In this document: positions 16,528 to 64,000 of the stretch, one piece after another | How the letters are laid out: each line of letters starts with the position of its first letter | Numbering within the stretch: position 1 is the first letter of the stretch | Assembly (NCBI GenBank): GCA_902800045.1 | Contig: CADCCZ010000006.1 | Coordinates: 66,174 to 130,173, forward strand | Direction of reading: 5' to 3' | Length of the DNA: 64,000 nucleotides | Source of the DNA: an uncultured Bacteroidia bacterium | GTDB lineage: Bacteria; Bacteroidota; Bacteroidia; Bacteroidales; ML635J-15 | Notes under the pieces: model-generated | The model's input: the letters and a program-made list of their open reading frames with translations, nothing else | Database searches by the model: none | What the model was told of the DNA's origin: nothing | Made by a program: the position numbers and the translations under genes

Positions 16528-16597
16528 TTACAATGGACAATTGATAATGGATAATTGACAATTTTCGAATTTTCAAATCTTCAAATCTTCGAATCTT
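16528..16597. repeat. Heptamer array (KGAYAAT type, 16528-16562) abutting an octamer array (YTTCRAAT, 16563-16597)
   Basis: ttacaat ggacaat tgataat ggataat tgacaat, then tttcgaat tttcaaat cttcaaat cttcgaat. The array fills the whole mutS2-start to ftsB-like-stop gap. Confidence 0.85.
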
Positions 16598-16915
16598 CTA
16601 CTCCTCCAATATCACAAGAAATATATCCTCGTCCTCCTCCTTCATGTAGTACTGTTCACGGGCAAACTTCTCGAGTTCTTCCTTTCCCGACATAAGTTCG
16701 TCTAGACGGGTGCTGTTCTCCAAATTTTCCTTCTCGTAGTACTTTTCGTTTTCACGCAGTTCGTGCAACTTGCTCATCTTCTCGAACCTGTCGATCAGAT
16801 TGAAATCGTCGAAAAACGTTATCCAAACAAGGAACAGAATAGCAACCACCCATCCCATGTATTTAGAGGAAAAATCCTTTACCTTACCGAATATTTTCTT
16901 GAACTTTTCTTTCAT
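16598..16915 (-). CDS. Septum formation initiator family protein (FtsB/DivIC-like)
   Basis: 105 aa with one N-terminal TM helix (WVVAILFLVWITFF) followed by a charged coiled-coil segment. Confidence 0.6.
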   Translation of the reverse strand: MKEKFKKIFGKVKDFSSKYMGWVVAILFLVWITFFDDFNLIDRFEKMSKLHELRENEKYYEKENLENSTRLDELMSGKEELEKFAREQYYMKEEDEDIFLVILEE

Positions 16916-16991
16916 CAGCGCAAATTTAAGACATATCTCACAACCTAAAACGAAAAAAACAATTTAGTTTTCAACATGTTTATAAAGAGGG

Positions 16992-17153
16992 GGCTAACAG
17001 GCTAGAAGGCTAACAGGCTAGAAGGCTAACAGGCGAGAAGGCTAACAGGCTAAAAGGCTAACAGGCTAAAAGGCTAACAGGCGAGCTGTCTAGCAGAGGA
17101 TCTGTCTGACAGACAGCCAGACCGTTAGACTGCAAGACTGTTAGCCTGTTAGA
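16992..17153. repeat. Array of GGCTAACA/GGCTAGAA-type octamers (16-bp super-unit, about 6.5 copies) plus an inverted partial copy and a CTGTCTGaCAGACAG palindrome
   Basis: ggctaacaggctagaa x2, ggctaacaggcgagaa, ggctaacaggctaaaa x2 ... The segment gttagcctgttag (17140-17153) is the reverse complement of the array word. Confidence 0.85.
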
Positions 17154-17194
17154 CATAAATCAAAAATCGTAAATCGTAAGTCGTAAATATATTG

Positions 17195-19602: not shown

Positions 19603-19608
19603 CAACAA

Positions 19609-19802
19609 CCAGAAACTCAGAAACCAGAAATTCAGAAACCAGAAACTCAGAAACCAAAAACTAGAAACAAGAAACTTGAAACTATTGAACTTTGAACCTT
19701 AAACTTTGAACCATTGAACCTTGTACAGTCGCGGCGCGCCACGACGCAACAAGAAACTTAGAAACAACTAGAAACTTAGAAACGGGCATAGCCCATAGAA
19801 AC
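19609..19802. repeat. Three consecutive octamer word arrays (CAGAAACY, TTGAACYW, AGAAACTT) with an embedded GTCGCGGCGCGCCACGAC hairpin (19728-19745)
   Basis: Read directly from the sequence: ccagaaactcagaaaccagaaattcagaaacc ... ttgaactttgaaccttaaactttgaaccattgaacc ... agaaacttagaaacaactagaaacttagaaac. Confidence 0.85.
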
Positions 19803-21197: not shown

Positions 21198-21381
21198 GCG
21201 AAAAGGCGGACAGGCTAACAGGCTGACAGGCGAACAGGCTAACAGGCTGACAGGCGAACAGGCTAACAGGCGAAAAGGCTAGCAGGCTAACAGGCTAACA
21301 GGCTAACAGGCTAACAGGCTGACAGACGAGAAGGCTAAAAGACTGCAAGACTGCAAGACTGCAAGACTGTAAGACTGTAAG
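21198..21381. repeat. Octamer arrays CAGGCTRA/CAGGCGAA (about 18 units) followed by AAGACTGY x5
   Basis: gacaggctaacaggctgacaggcgaacaggctaacagg ... aagactgcaagactgcaagactgcaagactgtaagactgtaag. The same two words occur at 16992-17153. Confidence 0.85.
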
Positions 21382-22536: not shown

Positions 22537-22572
22537 ATCGGGTAGCAGCATTCACAGCAATGCCTACCCGAT
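22537..22572 (+). terminator. Putative pfkA terminator hairpin
   Basis: ATCGGGTAG-18 nt-CTACCCGAT followed by an AT-rich T-containing run. Confidence 0.45.
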
Positions 22573-22662
22573 TAATTTAATTTAATATAGCCGTTGCTCG
22601 CTAGTTTTAGTCGTTGCTCGCAACGACTCTACAAACTGTTAACTTTTAACTATTAACTGATT

Positions 22663-56068: not shown

Positions 56069-56509
56069 TTATTTTATTCCTTTATACTTCAAAAATTCAT
56101 CATAATCGCGAATATAGTCCTCTGCCTCATAATGCTCACTTGCCAAGCACAACAATACAGCTCCGCTCGAAAAATCATCCAAATCACGCCAAATACCTGG
56201 GACAACTAACAATCCATAGTACGAGCGATTCAAATTAAAAGCCTTCTTGTTCGATCCATCATCAAGAGTCACAGAAAAAGAACCACTTGCAGCAATAATT
56301 AACTGAAACAATTGCTTATGAGCATGAGCCCCCCGGCTTTCTCCTCCAGGAACATCATACAAATAATAAATTCGCTTTATATCAAACGGGACATCTATTC
56401 CACCTTCTATAGGAGTAAGATTTCCACGTGGGTCGCTTATCTTCCGCAAGTCAATAATACGACAATCTGATATTGTACTCTTTTTTACATCCATAACTTT
56501 AGCCTTCAT
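56069..56509 (-). CDS. fdtA: dTDP-4-keto-6-deoxyglucose 3,4-ketoisomerase (FdtA/QdtA, WxcM-like cupin)
   Basis: Colinear with FdtA as I recall it: D.RG.L..IE....PF.IKR.YY..D.....RG.HAHK.L.Q......GS......DG...........GL.V.P..W....DFSS..V....AS..Y.E.DYIR.YD.F.KY. Confidence 0.85.
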   Translation of the reverse strand: MKAKVMDVKKSTISDCRIIDLRKISDPRGNLTPIEGGIDVPFDIKRIYYLYDVPGGESRGAHAHKQLFQLIIAASGSFSVTLDDGSNKKAFNLNRSYYGLLVVPGIWRDLDDFSSGAVLLCLASEHYEAEDYIRDYDEFLKYKGIK

Positions 56510-57779
56510 ATTGGATTCTTACATCGTTATTGTTTAAACGCAACACACCAGGCATGGTTCCTTGATTATATCCCATATCAGACAATGTATTTTCTACGGA
56601 GAAACATTGTTCAAACCCCGAATACACCACATATCGCTGATTTTCACCAAAGAAAATCTCTGCTCTGTATTTTCCTGCATTTATTGTATATGGTTTTAAT
56701 TCAAAATCAACAGAATAGAAACCTATTTTCGAGTCTTTTTCACCTATTTCACCGATTGCTTGCCCCACTTGAAAAACAGTCACGTTATCCAATGTAACAA
56801 CTTTCATATTAACATCGAGCATCGCATTTTCTTTACAACACTTAAATGTCAATCTGAATTTTATTCCCGATTCAATATCTATCTGTGTCCGTCCATCTCC
56901 AGCAATAATTTCAAATGATTTTATACGGATAACATCGTTACCAGGAGCTTTAGCAAGGTCATCAAAATATTGATTTTCAGAGCTACCACTTTCTCCGATA
57001 TAATAATCAACCGTTTCTTTGACCCCTCCAACATACTTTAAAGAACCATTTTCTAACATAACACCAGTCTTACACAAAGACTTTATACTCGCCATATTAT
57101 GACTAACAAACAGCACTGTCCTTCCCTCTCCTTTGCTTACATCTTGCATCTTACCAATAGCCTTCTTCTGGAATTCGGCATCACCAACAGCAAGCACCTC
57201 ATCAACCACAAGGATTTCAGGGTCGAGATGGGCGGCAATGGCAAAGCCAAGACGAACGGTCATTCCGCTGGAGTAGCGTTTAACTGGGGTGTCAATGTAG
57301 CGTTCGCAACCAGAGAAATCTACAATTTCATCAAGCTTGCGGGTAATTTCCTGCTTGGTCATACCCATAATGGCACCATTCATATAGATGTTTTCGCGGC
57401 CAGTCATTTCGGGATGAAAACCTGTGCCGACCTCAAGGAGAGAGGCTATACGACCTTTGTACTTTATGCTACCTGTTGTAGGTTTGGTTACACGCGATAG
57501 CAATTTCAGCAAGGTGGATTTGCCTGCACCGTTCTTGCCGATAATACCTACGACATCGCCCTGCTCGATTTCCATGTTTATGTCTTTGAGCGCCCACACA
57601 TATTCACTGTCAGCCTTTTGGGAACGGTCGTTCACAGAACCGATTTTAAGGTATGGGTCTTCCTTGCGAAGAATTTTGGTTGTCCACCACCTGTTCAGGT
57701 CGTGGCTCAATGTTCCCGTCGAGATTACACCCAGACGATATTGCTTCGAAACGTTTTCTATTTTTATTGCTGTTGACAT
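56499..57779 (-). CDS. wzt: O-antigen/glycan ABC transporter ATP-binding protein Wzt with extra C-terminal domain
   Basis: GIIGKNGAGKSTLLK (Walker A), YSSGM (signature), ILVVDEVLAVGD (Walker B), and about 170 extra C-terminal residues. The start was set at the ATG at 57779 (MSTAIKIENV). Confidence 0.85.
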   Translation of the reverse strand: MSTAIKIENVSKQYRLGVISTGTLSHDLNRWWTTKILRKEDPYLKIGSVNDRSQKADSEYVWALKDINMEIEQGDVVGIIGKNGAGKSTLLKLLSRVTKPTTGSIKYKGRIASLLEVGTGFHPEMTGRENIYMNGAIMGMTKQEITRKLDEIVDFSGCERYIDTPVKRYSSGMTVRLGFAIAAHLDPEILVVDEVLAVGDAEFQKKAIGKMQDVSKGEGRTVLFVSHNMASIKSLCKTGVMLENGSLKYVGGVKETVDYYIGESGSSENQYFDDLAKAPGNDVIRIKSFEIIAGDGRTQIDIESGIKFRLTFKCCKENAMLDVNMKVVTLDNVTVFQVGQAIGEIGEKDSKIGFYSVDFELKPYTINAGKYRAEIFFGENQRYVVYSGFEQCFSVENTLSDMGYNQGTMPGVLRLNNNDVRIQYEG

Positions 57780-57785
57780 AGACGG

Positions 57786-57793
57786 CAAAATTA
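57786..57793 (-). promoter_or_regulatory. -7-like box (TAATTTTG on minus strand) only 6 nt upstream of the wzt ATG
   Basis: Plus-strand caaaatta. If functional, it would give a leaderless or near-leaderless wzt mRNA. Confidence 0.3.
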
Positions 57794-57802
57794 ATTAATA
57801 AT

Positions 57803-57935
57803 TGACAATGGGCAATGGATAATTGATAATTGATAATGGATAATTGATAATGGATAATTGACAATGGATAATGGATAATTGATAATGGATAATGGACAAT
57901 GGACAATTGATAATTGATAATGGACAATGGATAAT
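57803..57935. repeat. 19-unit heptamer array (KGAYAAT)
   Basis: tgacaat gggcaat ggataat tgataat ... ggacaat ggataat = 133 bp = 19 x 7. The last nucleotide overlaps the abiEii stop codon. Confidence 0.95.
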
Positions 57936-58921
57936 TATTTGTGGTGAGATGTTATTATACCTATAATCCTTATCATAGCTTGAAAAATATCATCTGCAGA
58001 AGGTATTTCCTTATATGACAATTCGGGCAGTTCTCGCAGATATGTTGACTGCAGTCGTTCCCAGACTCCTCGAAAATCTTTAAGTAAAGGTGATTCTGCA
58101 ATATCTCGTTTTTGCCATCCGACAGGTCTCTGAAATGTAACCATGTCATGGTTAAGCAAATTTTCGAAATCTTTATTAAAATCAATGCTTTGCATATATT
58201 TCATGCACTTCTCATCATTTGTCAGATAATATAAATCATAGAAATGACGTATATGAGCATTCAAATCAACAATATAATCGTCACCCATTGAACACCTAAC
58301 TAGCGAAACTAACTTCTCTGTCATAGTTCTTCGCCTATCAAGCACAGTCATGTTGAACGATTGCATTTCATAATCCGCAATTATATCCTGTCGATTTTTC
58401 GCATTCAGAAAATCTGTTACAAAACTATTTATTTGCCGCGTTTCACAAGGATAGGGATTTGCAAATGAATTTATTTCCAAAAGGATCTCTCCATGTTTGA
58501 ATGCATTTGAGGCATTAGGTATATCTGAAATTGTAGGATAAGCAAAAAAAGCTTTATAATAATGAGACCCTTTACTTGTTAAACCGACTTTGGGAATTTC
58601 CTCCAATTCCCAAGACATGATATGAGCAGTCTTTTTTATGATGTTCTTTAATTGATTGCCTGTCATTTGCTCCGAATTTGCAATTGCAATATCAATATCT
58701 TCCGAGAATCTGGAGCCTATGCCATAGGCTTTTGTCAAACTTGTTCCTCCTTTAAAAACAGCATGACAATCCTTATCAGCAGCAGCAAGCAGCTGAAGAC
58801 TTCTACATATCCAATAGTCCTTCTCAACAAATTCGCGCTTTATGCGAAAATGCTGAGAAGTCATTTCTACAGCCTGCGAGAAAAGCTCTTTATTTTTATG
58901 CAAATTCATACAATCCTCCAT
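57935..58921 (-). CDS. abiEii: Nucleotidyltransferase AbiEii/AbiGii-family toxin
   Basis: FKGGTSLTKAYGIGSRFSEDIDIAI (GG[ST]...RxSxDxD NTase motif). An alternative ATG at 58909 gives an ATGA overlap with abiEi. Confidence 0.8.
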   Translation of the reverse strand: MEDCMNLHKNKELFSQAVEMTSQHFRIKREFVEKDYWICRSLQLLAAADKDCHAVFKGGTSLTKAYGIGSRFSEDIDIAIANSEQMTGNQLKNIIKKTAHIMSWELEEIPKVGLTSKGSHYYKAFFAYPTISDIPNASNAFKHGEILLEINSFANPYPCETRQINSFVTDFLNAKNRQDIIADYEMQSFNMTVLDRRRTMTEKLVSLVRCSMGDDYIVDLNAHIRHFYDLYYLTNDEKCMKYMQSIDFNKDFENLLNHDMVTFQRPVGWQKRDIAESPLLKDFRGVWERLQSTYLRELPELSYKEIPSADDIFQAMIRIIGIITSHHK

Positions 58922-59625
58922 TCTTTAGCATTAGGCAAGGCATTTTCGGAAATACCCAATTTATACACAGTTGCTGCATTTAGCGACTTTTTCAATGACA
59001 CAGCATCGTCGCCAATGCACTCCAACAGCGCACCCAGCACGGCTCGCACCGAACTTGTATATGACAAAGCAAGACGAGCAATATCTTTTCGCTCTTTTAT
59101 ATTCAGCGCGGCCAATATATTCTTTATAACCGCAATTGCAGCATCAGGTGTCGTTGCCGGAATATGACGAATAAATCTTATCGCATCCAACAATTGTAAC
59201 AAATGCACGTTATTCCTTGTAATTACATTATGTTGTAACACAAAATTTATTTTGTTTTCGCCTCGCATTATAGCACGTCGATACGTATTAGTGCCAATAT
59301 GATATGCAGAAGATATTTGTGTAGTAAGCCCCATTTGTGCAAAAGCGCGAGTTCCTGTAATGTATCCGATTATTGATTTCCCCTTATACAAAAATTCGCG
59401 TAACAACCAATCACTTGATGGAGGCATAATTCCAAATACAGATTGCTTCGGCTTATCGTATTTACCCTTTGACAATTTCCTTATCTCACCATCGCGAACC
59501 ATTTTATTGAGTATCCTACTCACAACTGAAGGACTTTTCACAACATCATAGAAATCGGATGATGTGAAAACATATCCAGCCCTAAACCTATTTATCTTAT
59601 TTCTAACTAAATCAATATTTTGCAT
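58906..59625 (-). CDS. abiEi: AbiEi-family antitoxin/transcriptional regulator (N-terminal wHTH)
   Basis: FTSSDFYD....PSVVSRILNKMVRDGEIRKLSKGKY (wHTH). Positioned immediately upstream of and overlapping the AbiEii gene. Confidence 0.65.
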   Translation of the reverse strand: MQNIDLVRNKINRFRAGYVFTSSDFYDVVKSPSVVSRILNKMVRDGEIRKLSKGKYDKPKQSVFGIMPPSSDWLLREFLYKGKSIIGYITGTRAFAQMGLTTQISSAYHIGTNTYRRAIMRGENKINFVLQHNVITRNNVHLLQLLDAIRFIRHIPATTPDAAIAVIKNILAALNIKERKDIARLALSYTSSVRAVLGALLECIGDDAVSLKKSLNAATVYKLGISENALPNAKEWRIV

Positions 59626-59656
59626 ATCATAATTCAGAATACCAAAAAACTAAAAA

Positions 59657-59697
59657 AAGTCAAGTTTTTTACGTAAATAAATTGACTTGCAAAAATA
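59657..59697 (-). promoter_or_regulatory. -7 box (TATTTTTG; plus-strand caaaaata 59690-59697) followed by inverted repeat AAGTCAA-18 nt-TTGACTT (59657-59688); candidate AbiEi operator
   Basis: Read directly. The inverted repeat lies between the box and the abiEi ATG (59625). Confidence 0.35.
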
Positions 59698-59732
59698 AGA
59701 AATATTTTTTATTCCGGCAAATACGAACAAAT

Positions 59733-60232
59733 GGATAATTGATAATTGATAATGGATAATTGATAATTGATAATGGATAATTGATAATGGATAATGGATA
59801 ATGGATAATGGATAATGGATAATGGACAATGGATAATGGACAATGGATAATGGACAATGGACAATGGACAATGGACAATGGACAATGGATAATGGATAAT
59901 GGACAATGGATAATGGATAATTGACAATGGATAATGGATAATGGACAATGGACAATGGATAATGGATAATGGACAATGGATAATGGATAATGGACAATGG
60001 ATAATGGATAATTGATAATGGATAATTGATAATGGATAATGGATAATGGACAATGGATAATGGACAATGGATAATGGATAATGGACAATGGATAATGGAT
60101 AATTGACAATGGATAATGGATAATGGACAATGGACAATGGATAATGGATAATGGATAATGGATAATGGATAATTGATAATAATGGATAATTGATAATGGA
60201 TAATTGATAATGGATAATGGACAATGGATAAT
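59733..60232. repeat. 71-unit heptamer array (KGAYAAT) with one 3-nt AAT insertion
   Basis: Counted unit by unit: 41 GGATAAT, 18 GGACAAT, 10 TGATAAT, 2 TGACAAT, plus aat at 60181-60183, for 500 bp in total. Confidence 0.97.
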
Positions 60233-60240
60233 TATTTTGA

Positions 60241-60299
60241 ACATCGACGCAAAGCATTGCGTCGCTACTGGGGTGCCGATATTTATTGTATAAATCATT
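60241..60299. repeat. Left copy of a 59-bp direct repeat flanking the hipBA module
   Basis: acatcgacgcaaagcattgcgtcgctacTggggtgccgatatttattgtataaatcatt. 58/59 identical to 62281-62339. Contains the hairpin CGACGCAAagcaTTGCGTCG+CTAC. Confidence 0.9.
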
Positions 60300-60322: not shown

Positions 60323-61834
60323 CTATTTAATCAAGAATTCATCGACATACCTTTGCGTCATTTCTGCAGACATGTGTTTCCATCCAGCATCCATAATCTT
60401 GCGCGCCAATGAACTATTTGCACCAAACACATACCGCTTGCATTCGCCATCCACTTTTGCACACAACTGAATATCATGCTTACGCGTCATCCTCCAGTGC
60501 ACATCACTAATCGCACGACCATCAGATGTCATATAATCGGGGACAGGCGTCGGCATATAATGCGTCATACCTCCAATATACCTCTCAGGCAACAAACCTG
60601 CCAGATACTCCTCTATCTTGTCCGCCCAGTAATCATCTACGCCTTGAGCTTTGAGATAAGACCAACATTCGGACAGTACACGACAAACCTTATCAATCTT
60701 ACCCTGAGCCCTTCCTATACTATTATCCGCTGCAAAACGGAGCAAGTCGCTTTCTGTTATATCCGACAATTTACCACCAACTGACAGGCAATGATTATTC
60801 TCATAACCAGATGTTTCCGGATTGGATGTAAAAGTCATGTCATAGGCTGGAGCTATATGCCACTCTCCATTCTCTACCATCTGGAATGAGAAGTTCTTCT
60901 GATGGTCGTCAACATTTCCGCCAAACACATTAAACACCATGCGCATAAACAACTCGTCTTGCTCGCCCTGCGGTATCTGAAGCATACGCGACACACGCAT
61001 CAAATCATCGTAACTATCCGCACTAGTACTCATCGCAGCCAAAGTCTGCGTATGGATTCTTTTCCCTCTCTGCCTGTCGAACCGCTCAGTCAAGAAATGC
61101 TTCTTTCCGTCAATCTCAACCAACCGAGACGGCATCATCCTTATACCTATAGCTTTTGCCATCTCGTAGTATGCCTGTTCGACCAATGTATATGGGAACC
61201 GATCAGTCTCAGCGAACTTTAATATATAATAAGTGTAATCTGCACCAAAATCAATCTGACCGGAACGTATTTCTTGCGTCTCGTTGTGAATCGCAATGAT
61301 GGCTTTCGGATGCTTTCCTCCAGCAGATGTTCCTATAGAATATAGACTTTGCAGTGTCAACGATTCTTCAGGCAAAACCATAACGTCCATCCGCTCTTCG
61401 AAAATACGTTGCGCCAACGAATACAAACTAGACAATGCCAACTCTCCTGGAATAGCAGACAACCCTACTGCCGGACGAAACTCCAAAGCCCCCATTCCCC
61501 TACTACCTATATAGGCCAATTTATCAACCGGTGTAATATCCTTTGAACGAATGTTATTCTCCTTTGCCCAGCATTCAAACACCAAACTTCCCCATTTATC
61601 CGGCAACGAATCGGCAATAAACGGCGGCAACCCCTGATAAACAGGTTCACTGCTTCCCAATATGGGACGAGCAGCAGCAACACTATGAATCGATGCGCAC
61701 AATGGCGCAATGTCAATTCCTGCACTTATGAATGCTGGATTGTACTCAAACACAGCCCTTGAAAGTTTCTTGTCCCAATATATGCGACCAACCTCCCGAT
61801 TCCACAACAATATAGACAGCACATTATTTTGCAT
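60323..61834 (-). CDS. hipA: HipA-family Ser/Thr kinase toxin (full length, with about 60-aa C-terminal extension)
   Basis: N-terminal subdomain (VGRIYWD...AVFEYNP, LPPFIADSLPDKWG), SAGGKHPKA, LTERFDR, and GGNVDDHQKNFSF (catalytic loop). The start was set at the ATG at 61834 because the track start is a GTG. Confidence 0.85.
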   Translation of the reverse strand: MQNNVLSILLWNREVGRIYWDKKLSRAVFEYNPAFISAGIDIAPLCASIHSVAAARPILGSSEPVYQGLPPFIADSLPDKWGSLVFECWAKENNIRSKDITPVDKLAYIGSRGMGALEFRPAVGLSAIPGELALSSLYSLAQRIFEERMDVMVLPEESLTLQSLYSIGTSAGGKHPKAIIAIHNETQEIRSGQIDFGADYTYYILKFAETDRFPYTLVEQAYYEMAKAIGIRMMPSRLVEIDGKKHFLTERFDRQRGKRIHTQTLAAMSTSADSYDDLMRVSRMLQIPQGEQDELFMRMVFNVFGGNVDDHQKNFSFQMVENGEWHIAPAYDMTFTSNPETSGYENNHCLSVGGKLSDITESDLLRFAADNSIGRAQGKIDKVCRVLSECWSYLKAQGVDDYWADKIEEYLAGLLPERYIGGMTHYMPTPVPDYMTSDGRAISDVHWRMTRKHDIQLCAKVDGECKRYVFGANSSLARKIMDAGWKHMSAEMTQRYVDEFLIK

Positions 61835-62144
61835 GGCGTACACGTTTCGGTTTCTTAGCGTTAAGCTTAGACATCATATAGGGCGAAAGCGGTATTGGAG
61901 GGAACAATTCATTTATCGACTCCAACCGCCCCACAATCCGCAACAGTGACAACAAATTGCCAAGCGTAATATTCTTTGCCTTGCCTGTCTCAAAGTTACG
62001 GATTGTTATCAGGCTGACGCCAACCTTTTCCGCCACTTCATGCTGTGTCAAATTTGCATTCAGACGATAGTCTCTAAATTGTTCACCTAACGACTGCACT
62101 ATCTCCGCATTCGACATTCCCAATATGTTATCTGCGTCTATCAT
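61824..62144 (-). CDS. hipB: XRE-family HTH protein (HipB-like antitoxin)
   Basis: LTQHEVAEKVGVSLITIRNFETGKAKNITLGNLLSLLRIVG. Overlaps hipA by 11 nt. Confidence 0.65.
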   Translation of the reverse strand: MIDADNILGMSNAEIVQSLGEQFRDYRLNANLTQHEVAEKVGVSLITIRNFETGKAKNITLGNLLSLLRIVGRLESINELFPPIPLSPYMMSKLNAKKPKRVRHAK

Positions 62145-62177: not shown

Positions 62178-62280
62178 AAAAAAATTTCCAATAAATACAA
62201 ATATTACATCTAAAGGACAACAAATTTTCTGTTATATAAATTTTTAGATGTAATTTGGAGGCGTTTATATGCATGTGTAA

Positions 62281-62339
62281 ACATCGACGCAAAGCATTGC
62301 GTCGCTACAGGGGTGCCGATATTTATTGTATAAATCATT
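62281..62339. repeat. Right copy of the 59-bp direct repeat flanking the hipBA module
   Basis: Offset is exactly 2040 bp from the left copy, with one mismatch (A for T at repeat position 29). Confidence 0.9.
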
Positions 62340-62699
62340 TAATTATTACGTTCTATTTGTCCGAAACGCAACCATTTTTTTAGGGAACTATATACAAGTT
62401 GACTAAATTTTGTGCTATTAAACTGTCATTGCTTGTTTCACTGCGCGAGCTAAAGGTTCCGCAAGTTAGAACAATAACGCGATACGGAACGGGGAGCGTA
62501 ATATTGTTCAACTGTGCGGAATCTCCTATAGAAACGTTTTCAATTGGAGATTACTCACTCCGTTTCGTGAAGGAGTTCCGCATAAACGAACTCACAAGCA
62601 ACGTTCCTTATGCTGTTCGTTCTGTTTTACGGAATGACTCAGAGGGCATAGGACAAAAGCACATTGCGTCAACACGTATATAGCTACTTTTTTTTATTT

Positions 62700-62822
62700 G
62701 TCGTTGCTCGTTTATTAGTCGTTGCTCGCAACGGCTCTACGGGGTTTGGATATTGTCAGTCGTTGCTCGCAACGGCTCTACGGGGTTTGGATATTGTCAG
62801 TCGTTGCTCGCAACGACTCTAC
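62700..62822. repeat. Tandem 41-bp repeat (2 full units + partial units), each carrying the GTCGTTGCtcGCAACGrC hairpin + TCTAC
   Basis: gtcgttgctcgcaacggctctacggggtttggatattgtca at 62718-62758 and 62759-62799. The partial unit at 62800-62822 is identical to 22610-22632. Confidence 0.9.
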
Positions 62823-63750
62823 AACATTCCAATGACCGCCCTTGTCGGGGCCAACACGAACAATAAATCCTTTTTCTCGTAATGTATTTAAATGAACACG
62901 TATAGTATCCCTATGCTTCCCTGTCATATCAGACAACTTATCATAGGTAATCTTTGGATTATCCTTTAACAACGAAACTATCAAAACATCTAAATCATCC
63001 AATTTTTCAGGCGGATTTTCAGGCGGATTTTCAGGCGGATTTTCAGGCGGATTTTCAGGCGGATTTTCAGGCGGATTTTCTATGATTGTTCTCTTAACAT
63101 CCAGCCTCCTGAACACCACCAAAGCACAGTCCATCTTTTCATCACGGAAACTTACGAGCTTGGAATCTTCTTCATTCCATTGCTGCATCTTGTCAAATCC
63201 AAAACCAGCATTCTCGCACAACTTTGCGCAACGGAACAATTTGGCAATAACAGGATTGCGAGGAATTGAAACATCAGTACGCAGCAGTTCGTCAATTGGA
63301 CGAGGGAAACCGCCTGGATTTTCAAACTCAATCCGATCTGTAAACACCCTTATCCGCGACTTCATCGGACTGAAATAATCAGCATGCATAAGCATATTTA
63401 CCAAGGCCTCACGGAGAGCATCCAACTTAGGCGACTCTTCAATGCCAACACCCATCTGGTTTATTCCCACAAAAACATTATCCGCATACAATCTAAGTCT
63501 CTGTATTATAGCCAGATAATATTCCCAAATATTTTCCATTTCCGAAATTCGGAATGTATATCGGTTCGTAGCATTGGCATACGATGTTCCTGGAATCTCA
63601 AAATAATCAATTCTAAAATCTGCAAAATGGTGTCCTATTGACAATTCGTTACCAAACATCAGTAAGCCTCCGTATGTAAGATTGCCATTCTTGGCAATCT
63701 GCAATTTCTCGCAAAATTCAGTATCGTCCAGATTATTATGGACATTTAAC
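62778..63750 (-). pseudogene. 5'-truncated paralog of the AlbA_2/HATPase_c_4 regulator (AlbA_2 domain missing)
   Basis: There is no ATG; the frame is open from the stop at about 63750. NNLDDTEFCEKLQIAKNGNLTYGGLLMFG aligns with residues about 195-225 of the 546-aa paralog. LREALVNMLMHADY is retained. A (PPEN)x6 linker is encoded by a 12-bp tandem repeat (63008-63079). The 3' end runs into the 41-bp repeat. Confidence 0.6.
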
Positions 63751-63798
63751 TATTTTTTATTTATTGAGACGTTGCACGCAACGTCGCTACAAATTTTA

Positions 63799-63847
63799 AT
63801 TATTCATTGTCAATTATCAATTGTCCATTGTCAATTGTTAATTGTTA
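63799..63847. repeat. 7-unit heptamer array in inverted orientation (ATTRTCM)
   Basis: attattc attgtca attatca attgtcc attgtca attgtta attgtta. The last unit contains the wzm stop codon. Confidence 0.8.
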
Positions 63848-64000
63848 AACGGTGTCCATGAAATCTTTTTCCACCTTATTGAATATAATTATTCCCACGA
63901 ACAGCATCAGCAGCATAAACCCGAAACTGTATGCCAGCCACAGCCACGAGAATGTACCCTGCCCTATGGCGCCATACTTGAAGGTCTCGATTATGGATGT
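63845..64000 (-). CDS. wzm: C-terminal 51 codons of an ABC-2 type glycan-export permease (Wzm); 5' end outside the window
   Basis: My translation: ...TFKYGAIGQGTFSWLWLAYSFGFMLLMLFVGIIIFNKVEKDFMDTV*. It shows a terminal TM helix plus an F.KVEK.F.D.V tail typical of Wzm/TagG. The ORF is not in the track because it is under 60 aa within the window. Confidence 0.55.
   Translation of the reverse strand, partial: TSIIETFKYGAIGQGTFSWLWLAYSFGFMLLMLFVGIIIFNKVEKDFMDTV

Follow-up and report, generated by a model that had tools for sequence, protein, structure and literature searches.

Heptanucleotides are reported to be the commonest class of long simple sequence repeats (LSSR), and polymerase slippage has been proposed as their cause (Mrazek 2007, as quoted in PMC4679880). 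Intergenic direct repeats of heptanucleotides have been reported in Cyanobacteria, Bacteroidetes and Beggiatoaceae, with arrays of the word TAACTGA reaching 43 copies in Bacteroidetes (PMC4679880). Here, a 500-bp tandem array of the heptamer KGAYAAT (i.e. array 1; 59733-60232) was analysed in a 64,000-nt stretch of contig CADCCZ010000006.1 (hereafter the window). The host is an uncultured Bacteroidales of the rumen, and near-identical contigs come from rumen metagenomes. An earlier note, made from the letters of the window, did not recognise the array as a described repeat family; the class of intergenic heptanucleotide direct repeats, or LSSR, had nevertheless been described already (PMC4679880). 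Judged by its sequence, array 1 is a new and unusually long member of this class, close to the TAACTGA repeats, and not a new kind of element. A literature search found no specific description of the KGAYAAT word or of Prevotella/Bacteroidetes heptamer arrays beyond PMC4679880.

Array 1 resembles the LSSR class (PMC4679880), the units of which are 1-11 nt long and have no spacers, in its contiguous head-to-tail 7-nt units, interrupted once by 3 nt, in a copy number that varies between strains and in a length beyond chance; slippage is the process proposed for the class in the parts of the survey quoted there. Double units (KGAYAATKGAYAAT) numbered 91 in the window, whereas 100 dinucleotide shuffles averaged 0.02, indicating that the array is longer than its composition predicts. 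Both LSSR heptamers and array 1 are intergenic, as 7 cannot be divided by 3, and in the window the 7-8-nt arrays of at least 4 copies were confined to non-coding DNA. With 71 units, array 1 stands at the long end of the reports quoted in PMC4679880 and its lineage is also rich in 8-nt arrays; the survey of Mrazek (2007), as far as it is quoted there, is not reported to cover rumen Bacteroidales.

The TAACTGA repeats (MacGregor 2015, PMC4679880) are a different unit, the rotation of which (i.e. TGATAAC) is one substitution from TGATAAT. Both repeats are intergenic, have stops in all forward frames and an open reverse strand (LSVISYQ and HYPLSII, respectively), and show a genome-specific preference of word. 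The phylum range of the TAACTGA repeats (i.e. Cyanobacteria, Bacteroidetes and sulfur-oxidising Gammaproteobacteria) is shared by KGAYAAT, which extends to more phyla. TAACTGA repeats lie in forward orientation a few nucleotides upstream of a start codon (PMC4679880), whereas array 1 is reversed and lies 107 nt from the ATG of an abiEi-like gene. A smaller array of the window (i.e. array 3; 16528-16562), the low-coordinate edge of which is 3 nt from the mutS2 start codon (ATG), shares this position with the TAACTGA repeats, yet is reverse-oriented. Cyanobacterial short tandemly repeated repetitive (STRR) heptamers, reportedly described by Mazel et al. in 1990, include CCCCAGT, TTGGTCA and CAACAGT. 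These heptamers serve for STRR fingerprinting. They resemble array 1 as intergenic, strain-variable tandem heptamers but differ in words, phylum and the higher G+C content of their units. BrickBuilt of Porphyromonas gingivalis (PMC4596501) is likewise an intergenic, spacer-less tandem array of a Bacteroidales with several loci per genome, but has a 23-nt unit, leader and tail subunits and inverted-repeat ends, whereas the KGAYAAT arrays have no such flanks or terminal inverted repeats (TIRs).

A unit-by-unit parse of array 1 reproduced the counts given in the earlier note, i.e. 41 GGATAAT, 18 GGACAAT, 10 TGATAAT and 2 TGACAAT for a total of 71 units, together with the AAT insertion at 60181-60183 and the restriction of variation to unit positions 1 (G/T) and 4 (T/C). 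The insertion breaks the 7-bp register and is common to all three long assemblies. Tandem Repeats Finder (TRF) returned a period of 7, 71.4 copies and a score of 755. KGAYAAT on the plus strand corresponds to ATTRTCM on the gene-sense minus strand, on which the units were designated A (ATTATCC), C (ATTGTCC), t (ATTATCA) and x (ATTGTCA). The duplication reported between units 23-34 and 49-60 proved to be real and the identity reaches 13 units, i.e. units 22-34 (59880-59970) and units 48-60 (60062-60152), located 182 bp apart. This 91-bp higher-order block includes both of the rare TGACAAT units. A repeated string of units as long as 13 occurred in ~1% of simple shuffles and in ~0.5% of shuffles that preserved unit pairs. 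The suggested 26-unit (182-bp) duplication was borne out by assemblies of near-identical strains: one (L194) has 45 units, exactly 26 fewer than the window, and a single block, and another (L001) has three blocks in tandem. The minus strand is stop-free in all three frames, as had been stated, and therefore yields three artefactual open reading frames (ORFs) of 115, 182 and 209 aa. TAA had also been placed in every plus-strand unit; this part did not hold, since GGACAAT and TGACAAT are without it and only 51 of 71 units contain TAA; each plus-strand frame nevertheless has 19-24 stops.

Comparison of array lengths between strains had been named as a check on the idea of a slippage hotspot, and this idea was upheld. 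Alleles of ~16, 17, 45 and 71 units, the long ones being read with an assembly caveat, and differing boundary orders were observed beside flanks of 98-100% identity. The L001 assembly also has 71 units and differs from the window in one 13-unit middle block, all 5 mismatches over 9.9 kb being inside array 1. The ~16-unit allele (L002) has degenerate edge units, and a 17-unit allele (L207) follows a 60-bp hairpin element in a different upstream context. Two contigs (L004 and L007) exhibited differing promoter-proximal unit orders adjoining an identical abiE promoter, and a metagenome scan for the abiE-side junction of array 1 recovered one further allele. The polymorphism of array 1 is established as real, given that a single read can span a short allele or a boundary order; for the long alleles, how many units there are exactly and in which order depends on the assembly. 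A second array (i.e. array 2; 57803-57935), with 19 units, was identical in four assemblies, including the strain with the ~16-unit array 1, and its constancy fits a length-dependent instability. Five short-read contigs from several studies (L003, L004, L006, L007 and L196) end in or at the edge of array 1, and in L001 a gene caller annotated a 209-aa 'protein' across it. Arrays of this kind fragment short-read metagenome-assembled genomes (MAGs) of rumen Bacteroidales and create spurious 'hypothetical protein' ORFs, and array lengths in MAGs are unreliable.

The favoured reading, given a probability of roughly 60%, is that array 1 is a hypervariable intergenic heptanucleotide minisatellite which arose at a cassette junction by expansion of a duplicated AT-rich motif. 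A duplicated seed was observed in an array-free relative (L214) with a 70% identical AbiEi, in which the abiE promoter/operator and the abiEii-wzt linkage are the same as in the window. In this relative, a 33-nt segment is present 5' of both abiEi and wzt. The two copies are identical at 31/33 positions, form a direct repeat around the abiE cassette and end in CATTG(GT/AC)AATTATTAATT (i.e. CATTGNNAATTATTAATT), a motif already readable as two imperfect ATTRTCM units. Arrays 1 and 2 would have expanded from two copies of one seed, because the 33-nt copies align to the promoter-proximal ends of these two arrays and a rare trio of units (ATTATCC-ATTGCCC-ATTGTCA) is common to array 2 and the L002 allele of array 1. 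The locus would be an unusually clear record of the birth of a bacterial minisatellite, with a duplicated motif around abiE in one lineage and arrays of 19 and 71 units in another. A different relative (L208, AbiEi 76% identical) has AAACGT-type words on both sides of abiE (AACGTAAACGTAAAA upstream and TTAAACGTG x3 downstream; 1018-1113 and 2817-2951), and this same-word flanking echoes the pattern in the window.

Array 1 would have grown in place from a short AT-rich proto-repeat (...CATTGNNAATTATTAATT...) that is part of the wzm|wzt spacer and promoter region, with the seed motif being duplicated on both sides of abiE upon entry of the cassette into this gap. Replication slippage of 1-3-unit blocks and unequal recombination of the 13-unit (91-bp) blocks may have enlarged the upstream copy to tens of units and may still be altering the length and unit order of array 1 between strains; the sequences suggest that these two processes are the molecular basis of the array. 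The genes surrounding array 1 are all on the minus strand. The array is located on their non-coding side, 90 nt past the hipA stop codon and 107 nt ahead of the abiEi start codon, between a hairpin that is the likely hipA terminator and the abiE promoter. Neither TAnnTTTG, the Bacteroidetes-type promoter box, nor TTTG was present in the KGAYAAT arrays on either strand, the -7 boxes being just downstream of the arrays. Array 1 would occupy dead space, with no host promoter motif inside, and its effects would be limited to the separation of modules and the breaking of short-read assemblies. It is probably neutral, with no sequence-specific function at this locus.

Turnover of arrays was apparent at housekeeping spacers compared between strains with an identical PFK protein. 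The Aminotran_4|MutS spacer contains 231 bp of arrays in the window as compared to 7-18 bp elsewhere, or 52 bp with two AGAAAC units, and the MutS|PFK arrays of the window are a two-unit proto-repeat (GGCGAATAGGCTGAAA) in other strains. The mutS2|divIC spacer holds KGAYAAT and AATCTTCR in the window and L203, and GATTTAC, TTGAACN and GAAACYT in L198 and L199. Because sister strains gain, lose or swap 7-8-nt arrays at orthologous spacers, these comparisons indicate that the arrays are dispensable, born from local seeds and subject to fast turnover, the 7-8-nt period being kept and the word not. Retention of the period with a change of word sharpens the question of why heptamers dominate the long repeats of bacteria and why the vocabulary of words per genome is small. 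Directly 5' of the priA start codon (22620-22660), TTAACTN heptamers in forward orientation were present in 3-6 copies depending on the strain (L198-L206); these are closer to the published TAACTGA repeats than array 1 is.

Three further KGAYAAT arrays had been listed in the earlier note, which placed all such arrays at gene boundaries. The three were present and, by their distances to start and stop codons, all four KGAYAAT arrays are at gene boundaries; the units were not purely of the family, with variants being found at the edges. Array 2 has the orientation of array 1, consists of 18 family units and one GGGCAAT, starts at the abiEii stop codon, which it overlaps, and ends a short distance upstream of the wzt -7 box (57786-57793). 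Array 3 comprises 5 units, i.e. 4 family units and TTACAAT. Array 4 (63799-63847) comprises 7 units (i.e. 4 family units, ATTATTC and two ATTGTTA), starts with the wzm TAA stop codon and has the opposite orientation, KGAYAAT being on the gene-sense strand. Other words form arrays of 7-8-nt units: AATCTTCA, GGCTAACA/GGCTAGAA, AGACTGTT and TAAATCG in neighbouring spacers at 16560-17188; AACCAGA, TTGAACN and AGAAACTT, stacked at 19607-19783 where sister strains have 7-52-bp spacers; and ACAGGCTA (~17 copies) and AAGACTGC (~5 copies) at 21204-21381, where sister strains have only a two-unit proto-repeat. Degenerate arrays were identified by TRF and direct reading, a strict period detector having missed them. 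Approximately 12 different 7-8-nt words were found among the arrays of the window, and all 7-8-nt arrays with at least 4 copies were intergenic in this stretch, 91% of which is coding.

Several observations weigh against the favoured reading. The same word, KGAYAAT, is present at four spacers within 64 kb, and other words recur as well, which purely random local seeding does not predict. GGCTAACA followed by AGACTGY occurs at two non-orthologous spacers (16992-17154 and 21204-21381), and TTGAACN/GAAACTT and TAAATCG recur at different spacers in different strains (L198/L199 263-405). A scan for five consecutive KGAYAAT units in one genome per GTDB species matched at least 120 loci in many phyla. 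Among the matches listed, variants beside pure runs favoured positions 1 and 4 over uniform mutation (24/60 versus 2/21), a pattern that random local seeding does not predict either. Lastly, the order and length of the long alleles rest on short-read metagenome assemblies and differ between them, so that some of the polymorphism could have been produced by assembly. With respect to the octamer pair GGCTAACA-AGACTGY, the two unrelated spacers are alike at 85-88% over ~90 nt.

The matches listed in the scan were distributed over Cyanobacteria, many Bacteroidota (including rumen Prevotella and Bacteroidales MAGs), Ignavibacteria/Chlorobi, Acidobacteria, Desulfobacterota, Chromatiales, several Firmicutes and others. 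Among these matches, TGATAAT was the commonest unit, the longest KGAYAAT array had 29 units, TAACTGA arrays co-occurred in 5 loci, and inside KGAYAAT arrays TGATAAC was limited to 2 units. A limited vocabulary of 7-8-nt words is reused across non-orthologous spacers. It is doubtful, on present evidence, that KGAYAAT and the other recurring 7-8-mers form a genuine repeat system, based either on a conserved trans-acting factor that recognises a 7-bp periodic site or on active templated copying from spacer to spacer and to cassette junctions. Relevant to the former version is TGAYAAT, the heptamer with the best encoding of phased -35/-10 hexamers (Fur-like GATAAT), which recurs from Cyanobacteria to Bacteroidota. 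If the vocabulary truly reflected a trans-acting factor or a copying mechanism, the biology would be new, but nothing in the present evidence calls for such a reading.

An unlikely role for array 1 is that of a transcriptional insulator: read-through past the hairpin would produce an (AUUAUCC/AUUGUCC)n RNA that loads Rho and so stops transcription before the autoregulated abiE promoter. The minus strand of array 1 contains 26% C and 4% G, and a 150-nt sense RNA had a minimum free energy (MFE) of 0 kcal/mol, being less structured than 200/200 shuffles (z = +2.29); neither strand of array 1 folded better than its shuffles. In composition only, the minus strand agrees with the definition of a Rho utilization (rut) site as at least ~80 nt of unstructured, C-rich and G-poor RNA. 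The position of array 1 between a terminator-like hairpin and a separate promoter and the common orientation of arrays 1-3 also speak for insulation. However, array 4 is reversed and would give a G-rich RNA, array-free relatives carry the same abiE promoter, and ~80 nt suffices for Rho, leaving a length of 500 bp unexplained in this scheme. Orientation was also unfavourable, the direction opposite to arrays 1-3 being commoner (19 to 7) among the matches listed for other Bacteroidota.

A part for the arrays in recombination or mobility is similarly improbable. The arrays would serve as substrates for cassettes to be inserted or exchanged between wzm and wzt, or would themselves be copied from one spacer to another; this would explain the small common vocabulary of words. 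KGAYAAT arrays are indeed located at three cassette junctions of this gap (i.e. wzm|regulator, hipBA|abiE and abiE|wzt), the same words occur at non-orthologous spacers, and abiE is found both in the presence and in the absence of an upstream hipBA, and in further contexts (L005, L207, L208, L211 and L214). In contrast, hipBA is bracketed by the 60-bp hairpin element and not by heptamers, the junction in L005 is inside the abiE promoter and not in an array, and the four arrays have no TIRs and no common leader or tail around them. Insertion of the cassette did not need arrays, because array-free relatives have abiE in the same gap. A MITE (miniature inverted-repeat transposable element) was rejected for lack of TIRs, with flank alignments no better than shuffles and no leader, tail or flanks in common to the four KGAYAAT arrays.

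Still less probable is a protein-binding array, in which the repeated words GATAAT or TTGAYA would titrate or organise a DNA-binding protein, be it RNA polymerase, a regulator of the Fur family or a nucleoid protein with a 7-bp periodic site (21 bp being two helical turns). GATAAT, the hexamer of the Escherichia coli Fur box (PMC11353095), occurs in 51/71 units and the word family recurs across phyla. A scan with the sigma-70 consensus found 83 sites as compared to 20.7 expected, nearly all in KGAYAAT arrays, which give 9-11/12 matches at 17-bp spacing to TTGACA-17-TATAAT-like hexamers, a promoter type that is not the host's. TGATAAT and TGACAAT are 2 of only 4/2,344 heptamer necklaces that reach 10/12 as pure arrays. 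A train of sigma-70 promoters was rejected because the host uses a different promoter type (i.e. TAnnTTTG boxes, which are missing from the arrays) and because no orientation bias was seen in a phylum with sigma-70-type promoters; furthermore, arrays 1-3 would fire antisense. In that phylum, the Cyanobacteria, the matches listed gave 10 forward to 11 reverse arrays after masking, and some arrays lie between convergent genes. An unmasked orientation count (46 to 18) was biased by ORFs reading through the open strand. A Fur box was rejected as no match to the 19-bp palindrome GATAATGATAATCATTATC was present in the window at ≤3 mismatches, and no 7-1-7 inverted repeat was found. Although GATAAT is repeated both in array 1 and in the Fur-box hexamer arrays (PMC11353095), the units of array 1 are direct and have a pitch of 7 bp and not 6. 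In viral contigs, TGATAATx4 was no commoner (22 loci) than its scrambles (34 and 10 loci), and unrelated heptamers replace the word at an orthologous spacer. These indirect tests do not favour a sequence-specific role, because orthologous spacers do not conserve the word, relatives are array-free, orientation is unconstrained and the Fur geometry is missing.

Operators of E. coli HipB have the form TATCC-N8-GGATA. Array 1 was rejected as such an operator since it carries GGATA as direct half-sites only, the region 5' of hipB has a different inverted repeat of 12 bp, and KGAYAAT arrays also occur far from any hipBA. Contingency simple sequence repeats (SSRs; e.g. of Haemophilus, PMC12721329) resemble array 1 in being prone to slippage and close to surface-glycan and defence genes, but are located in ORFs, between promoter hexamers or in 5' untranslated regions, positions from which a change of copy number switches expression. 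A phase-variation SSR was rejected: array 1 ends upstream of a conserved abiE promoter, the sequence of which also occurs in array-free relatives. As array 1 is upstream of the whole abiE promoter, its copy number leaves promoter spacing unchanged. Units of 7 nt with no spacers also separate the array from clustered regularly interspaced short palindromic repeats (CRISPR), which have 23-50-nt repeats and unique spacers. Rfam at gathering thresholds and a tRNA/tmRNA scan gave no match in the window.

It is very improbable that the long array 1 is an assembly artefact, i.e. an assembler expansion or mis-join at a locus which truly has a short repeat. Three assemblies of near-identical strains do disagree in order or length, all mismatches between the window and L001 are in the array, and the five contigs mentioned above end in it. 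Nevertheless, breaks at both edges and an array running to the contig end are expected of a genuinely long array, and the AAT insertion and both edges recur in the three assemblies. The short alleles, of 112-119 bp, fit one read and differ from each other, and in other taxa the word forms arrays in complete MAG chromosomes obtained from long reads. The 209-aa HYPLSII ORF, open like the other two minus-strand frames and annotated by the gene caller in L001, is almost certainly not a real repeat protein, and the earlier view of these ORFs as artefacts stands: openness follows from the word, the reverse strand of which cannot encode a stop, no Pfam hit or upstream promoter motif was found, the exact sequence is absent from a collection of 15 billion proteins, and the AAT insertion and unit indels, in 7-bp steps that are not multiples of 3, shift the encoded 'protein', which is not conserved as such.

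In the sense direction, the locus consists of wzm (ABC2_membrane), array 4, a hairpin, a HATPase_c_4/HTH_24 gene, a 60-bp hairpin element and hipB-hipA, followed by a second 60-bp element, array 1, the abiE promoter, abiEi-abiEii, array 2, wzt (ABC_tran), fdtA and a glycan cluster. The corresponding minus-strand genes are the 3' end of a wzm-like ABC2_membrane gene (63845-64000; from the Pfam annotation of L194), a hipB-like helix-turn-helix antitoxin gene (61824-62144), a hipA-like toxin kinase gene (60323-61834; Couple_hipA and HipA_C), an abiEi-like antitoxin gene (58906-59625; DUF6088), an abiEii nucleotidyltransferase toxin gene (57935-58909) and a wzt-like ABC transporter ATPase gene (56499-57779), which has Wzt_C in a homologue and is the first gene of the downstream glycan cluster. 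TAnnTTTG boxes are present 5' of hipB, abiEi and wzt. The abiE promoter/operator region (59626-59732, minus strand) has its -7 box at 59690-59697 and is conserved in array-free relatives. A 16-nt palindrome in the 5' region of abiEi (AAGTCAAGTTTTTTAC|GTAAATAAATTGACTT; 59657-59688) is kept in AbiEi homologues down to 70% identity and is probably the operator for AbiEi autorepression. Upstream of hipB, a perfect 12-bp inverted repeat (ATTACATCTAAA at 62203-62214 and TTTAGATGTAAT at 62243-62254) is a candidate HipB operator.

The likely hipA terminator is a GC-rich hairpin (CGACGCAA-N4-TTGCGTCG; 60245-60264, minus strand) that forms in the MFE structure, is 3' of hipA and is followed by array 1. 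The hairpin is part of the 60-bp element, the copies of which, downstream of hipA (60240-60299) and upstream of hipB (62280-62339), are 98% identical and bracket hipBA. This element also precedes the array in L002 and in L207. It contains the GC-rich hairpin CGACGCAAAGCATTGCGTCG and CTAC, and looks like a repetitive extragenic palindromic (REP)-like element or an insertion-site element. Kindred 'hairpin + (G/T)CTAC' elements were present at 62693-62822, 22540-22620 and 63768-63792, the last of these being a variant that adjoins array 4. One form, GTCGTTGCTCGCAACGRC-TCTAC, is tandemly repeated (2.6 copies of 41 bp), overlapping the HATPase_c_4 gene at its 3' end, and is also found in the PFK|priA spacer.

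The wzm|wzt gap of this O-antigen-type ABC transporter holds three accessory modules, i.e. the HATPase_c_4/HTH regulator, hipBA and abiE. The gap appears to be a hotspot that accumulates toxin-antitoxin and defence cassettes, because L208, the relative with a 76% identical AbiEi, has only the simple order wzm-abiE-wzt. In L214, abiE-wzt is beside a peptidase gene. The G+C content is 0.44-0.47 in the housekeeping part of the window (1-24000) and 0.35-0.39 across the glycosyltransferase/O-antigen cluster (24001-56000), a drop that fits a horizontally exchanged glycan locus. The HATPase_c_4/HTH_24 protein contains an (ENPP)n stretch encoded by a 12-bp in-frame repeat (TTTTCAGGCGGA; 63004-63080, 6.4 copies, 100% identical), and its homologue in L194 has 277 aa as compared to 308 aa in the window, a difference that the start-codon call or the copy number may explain.

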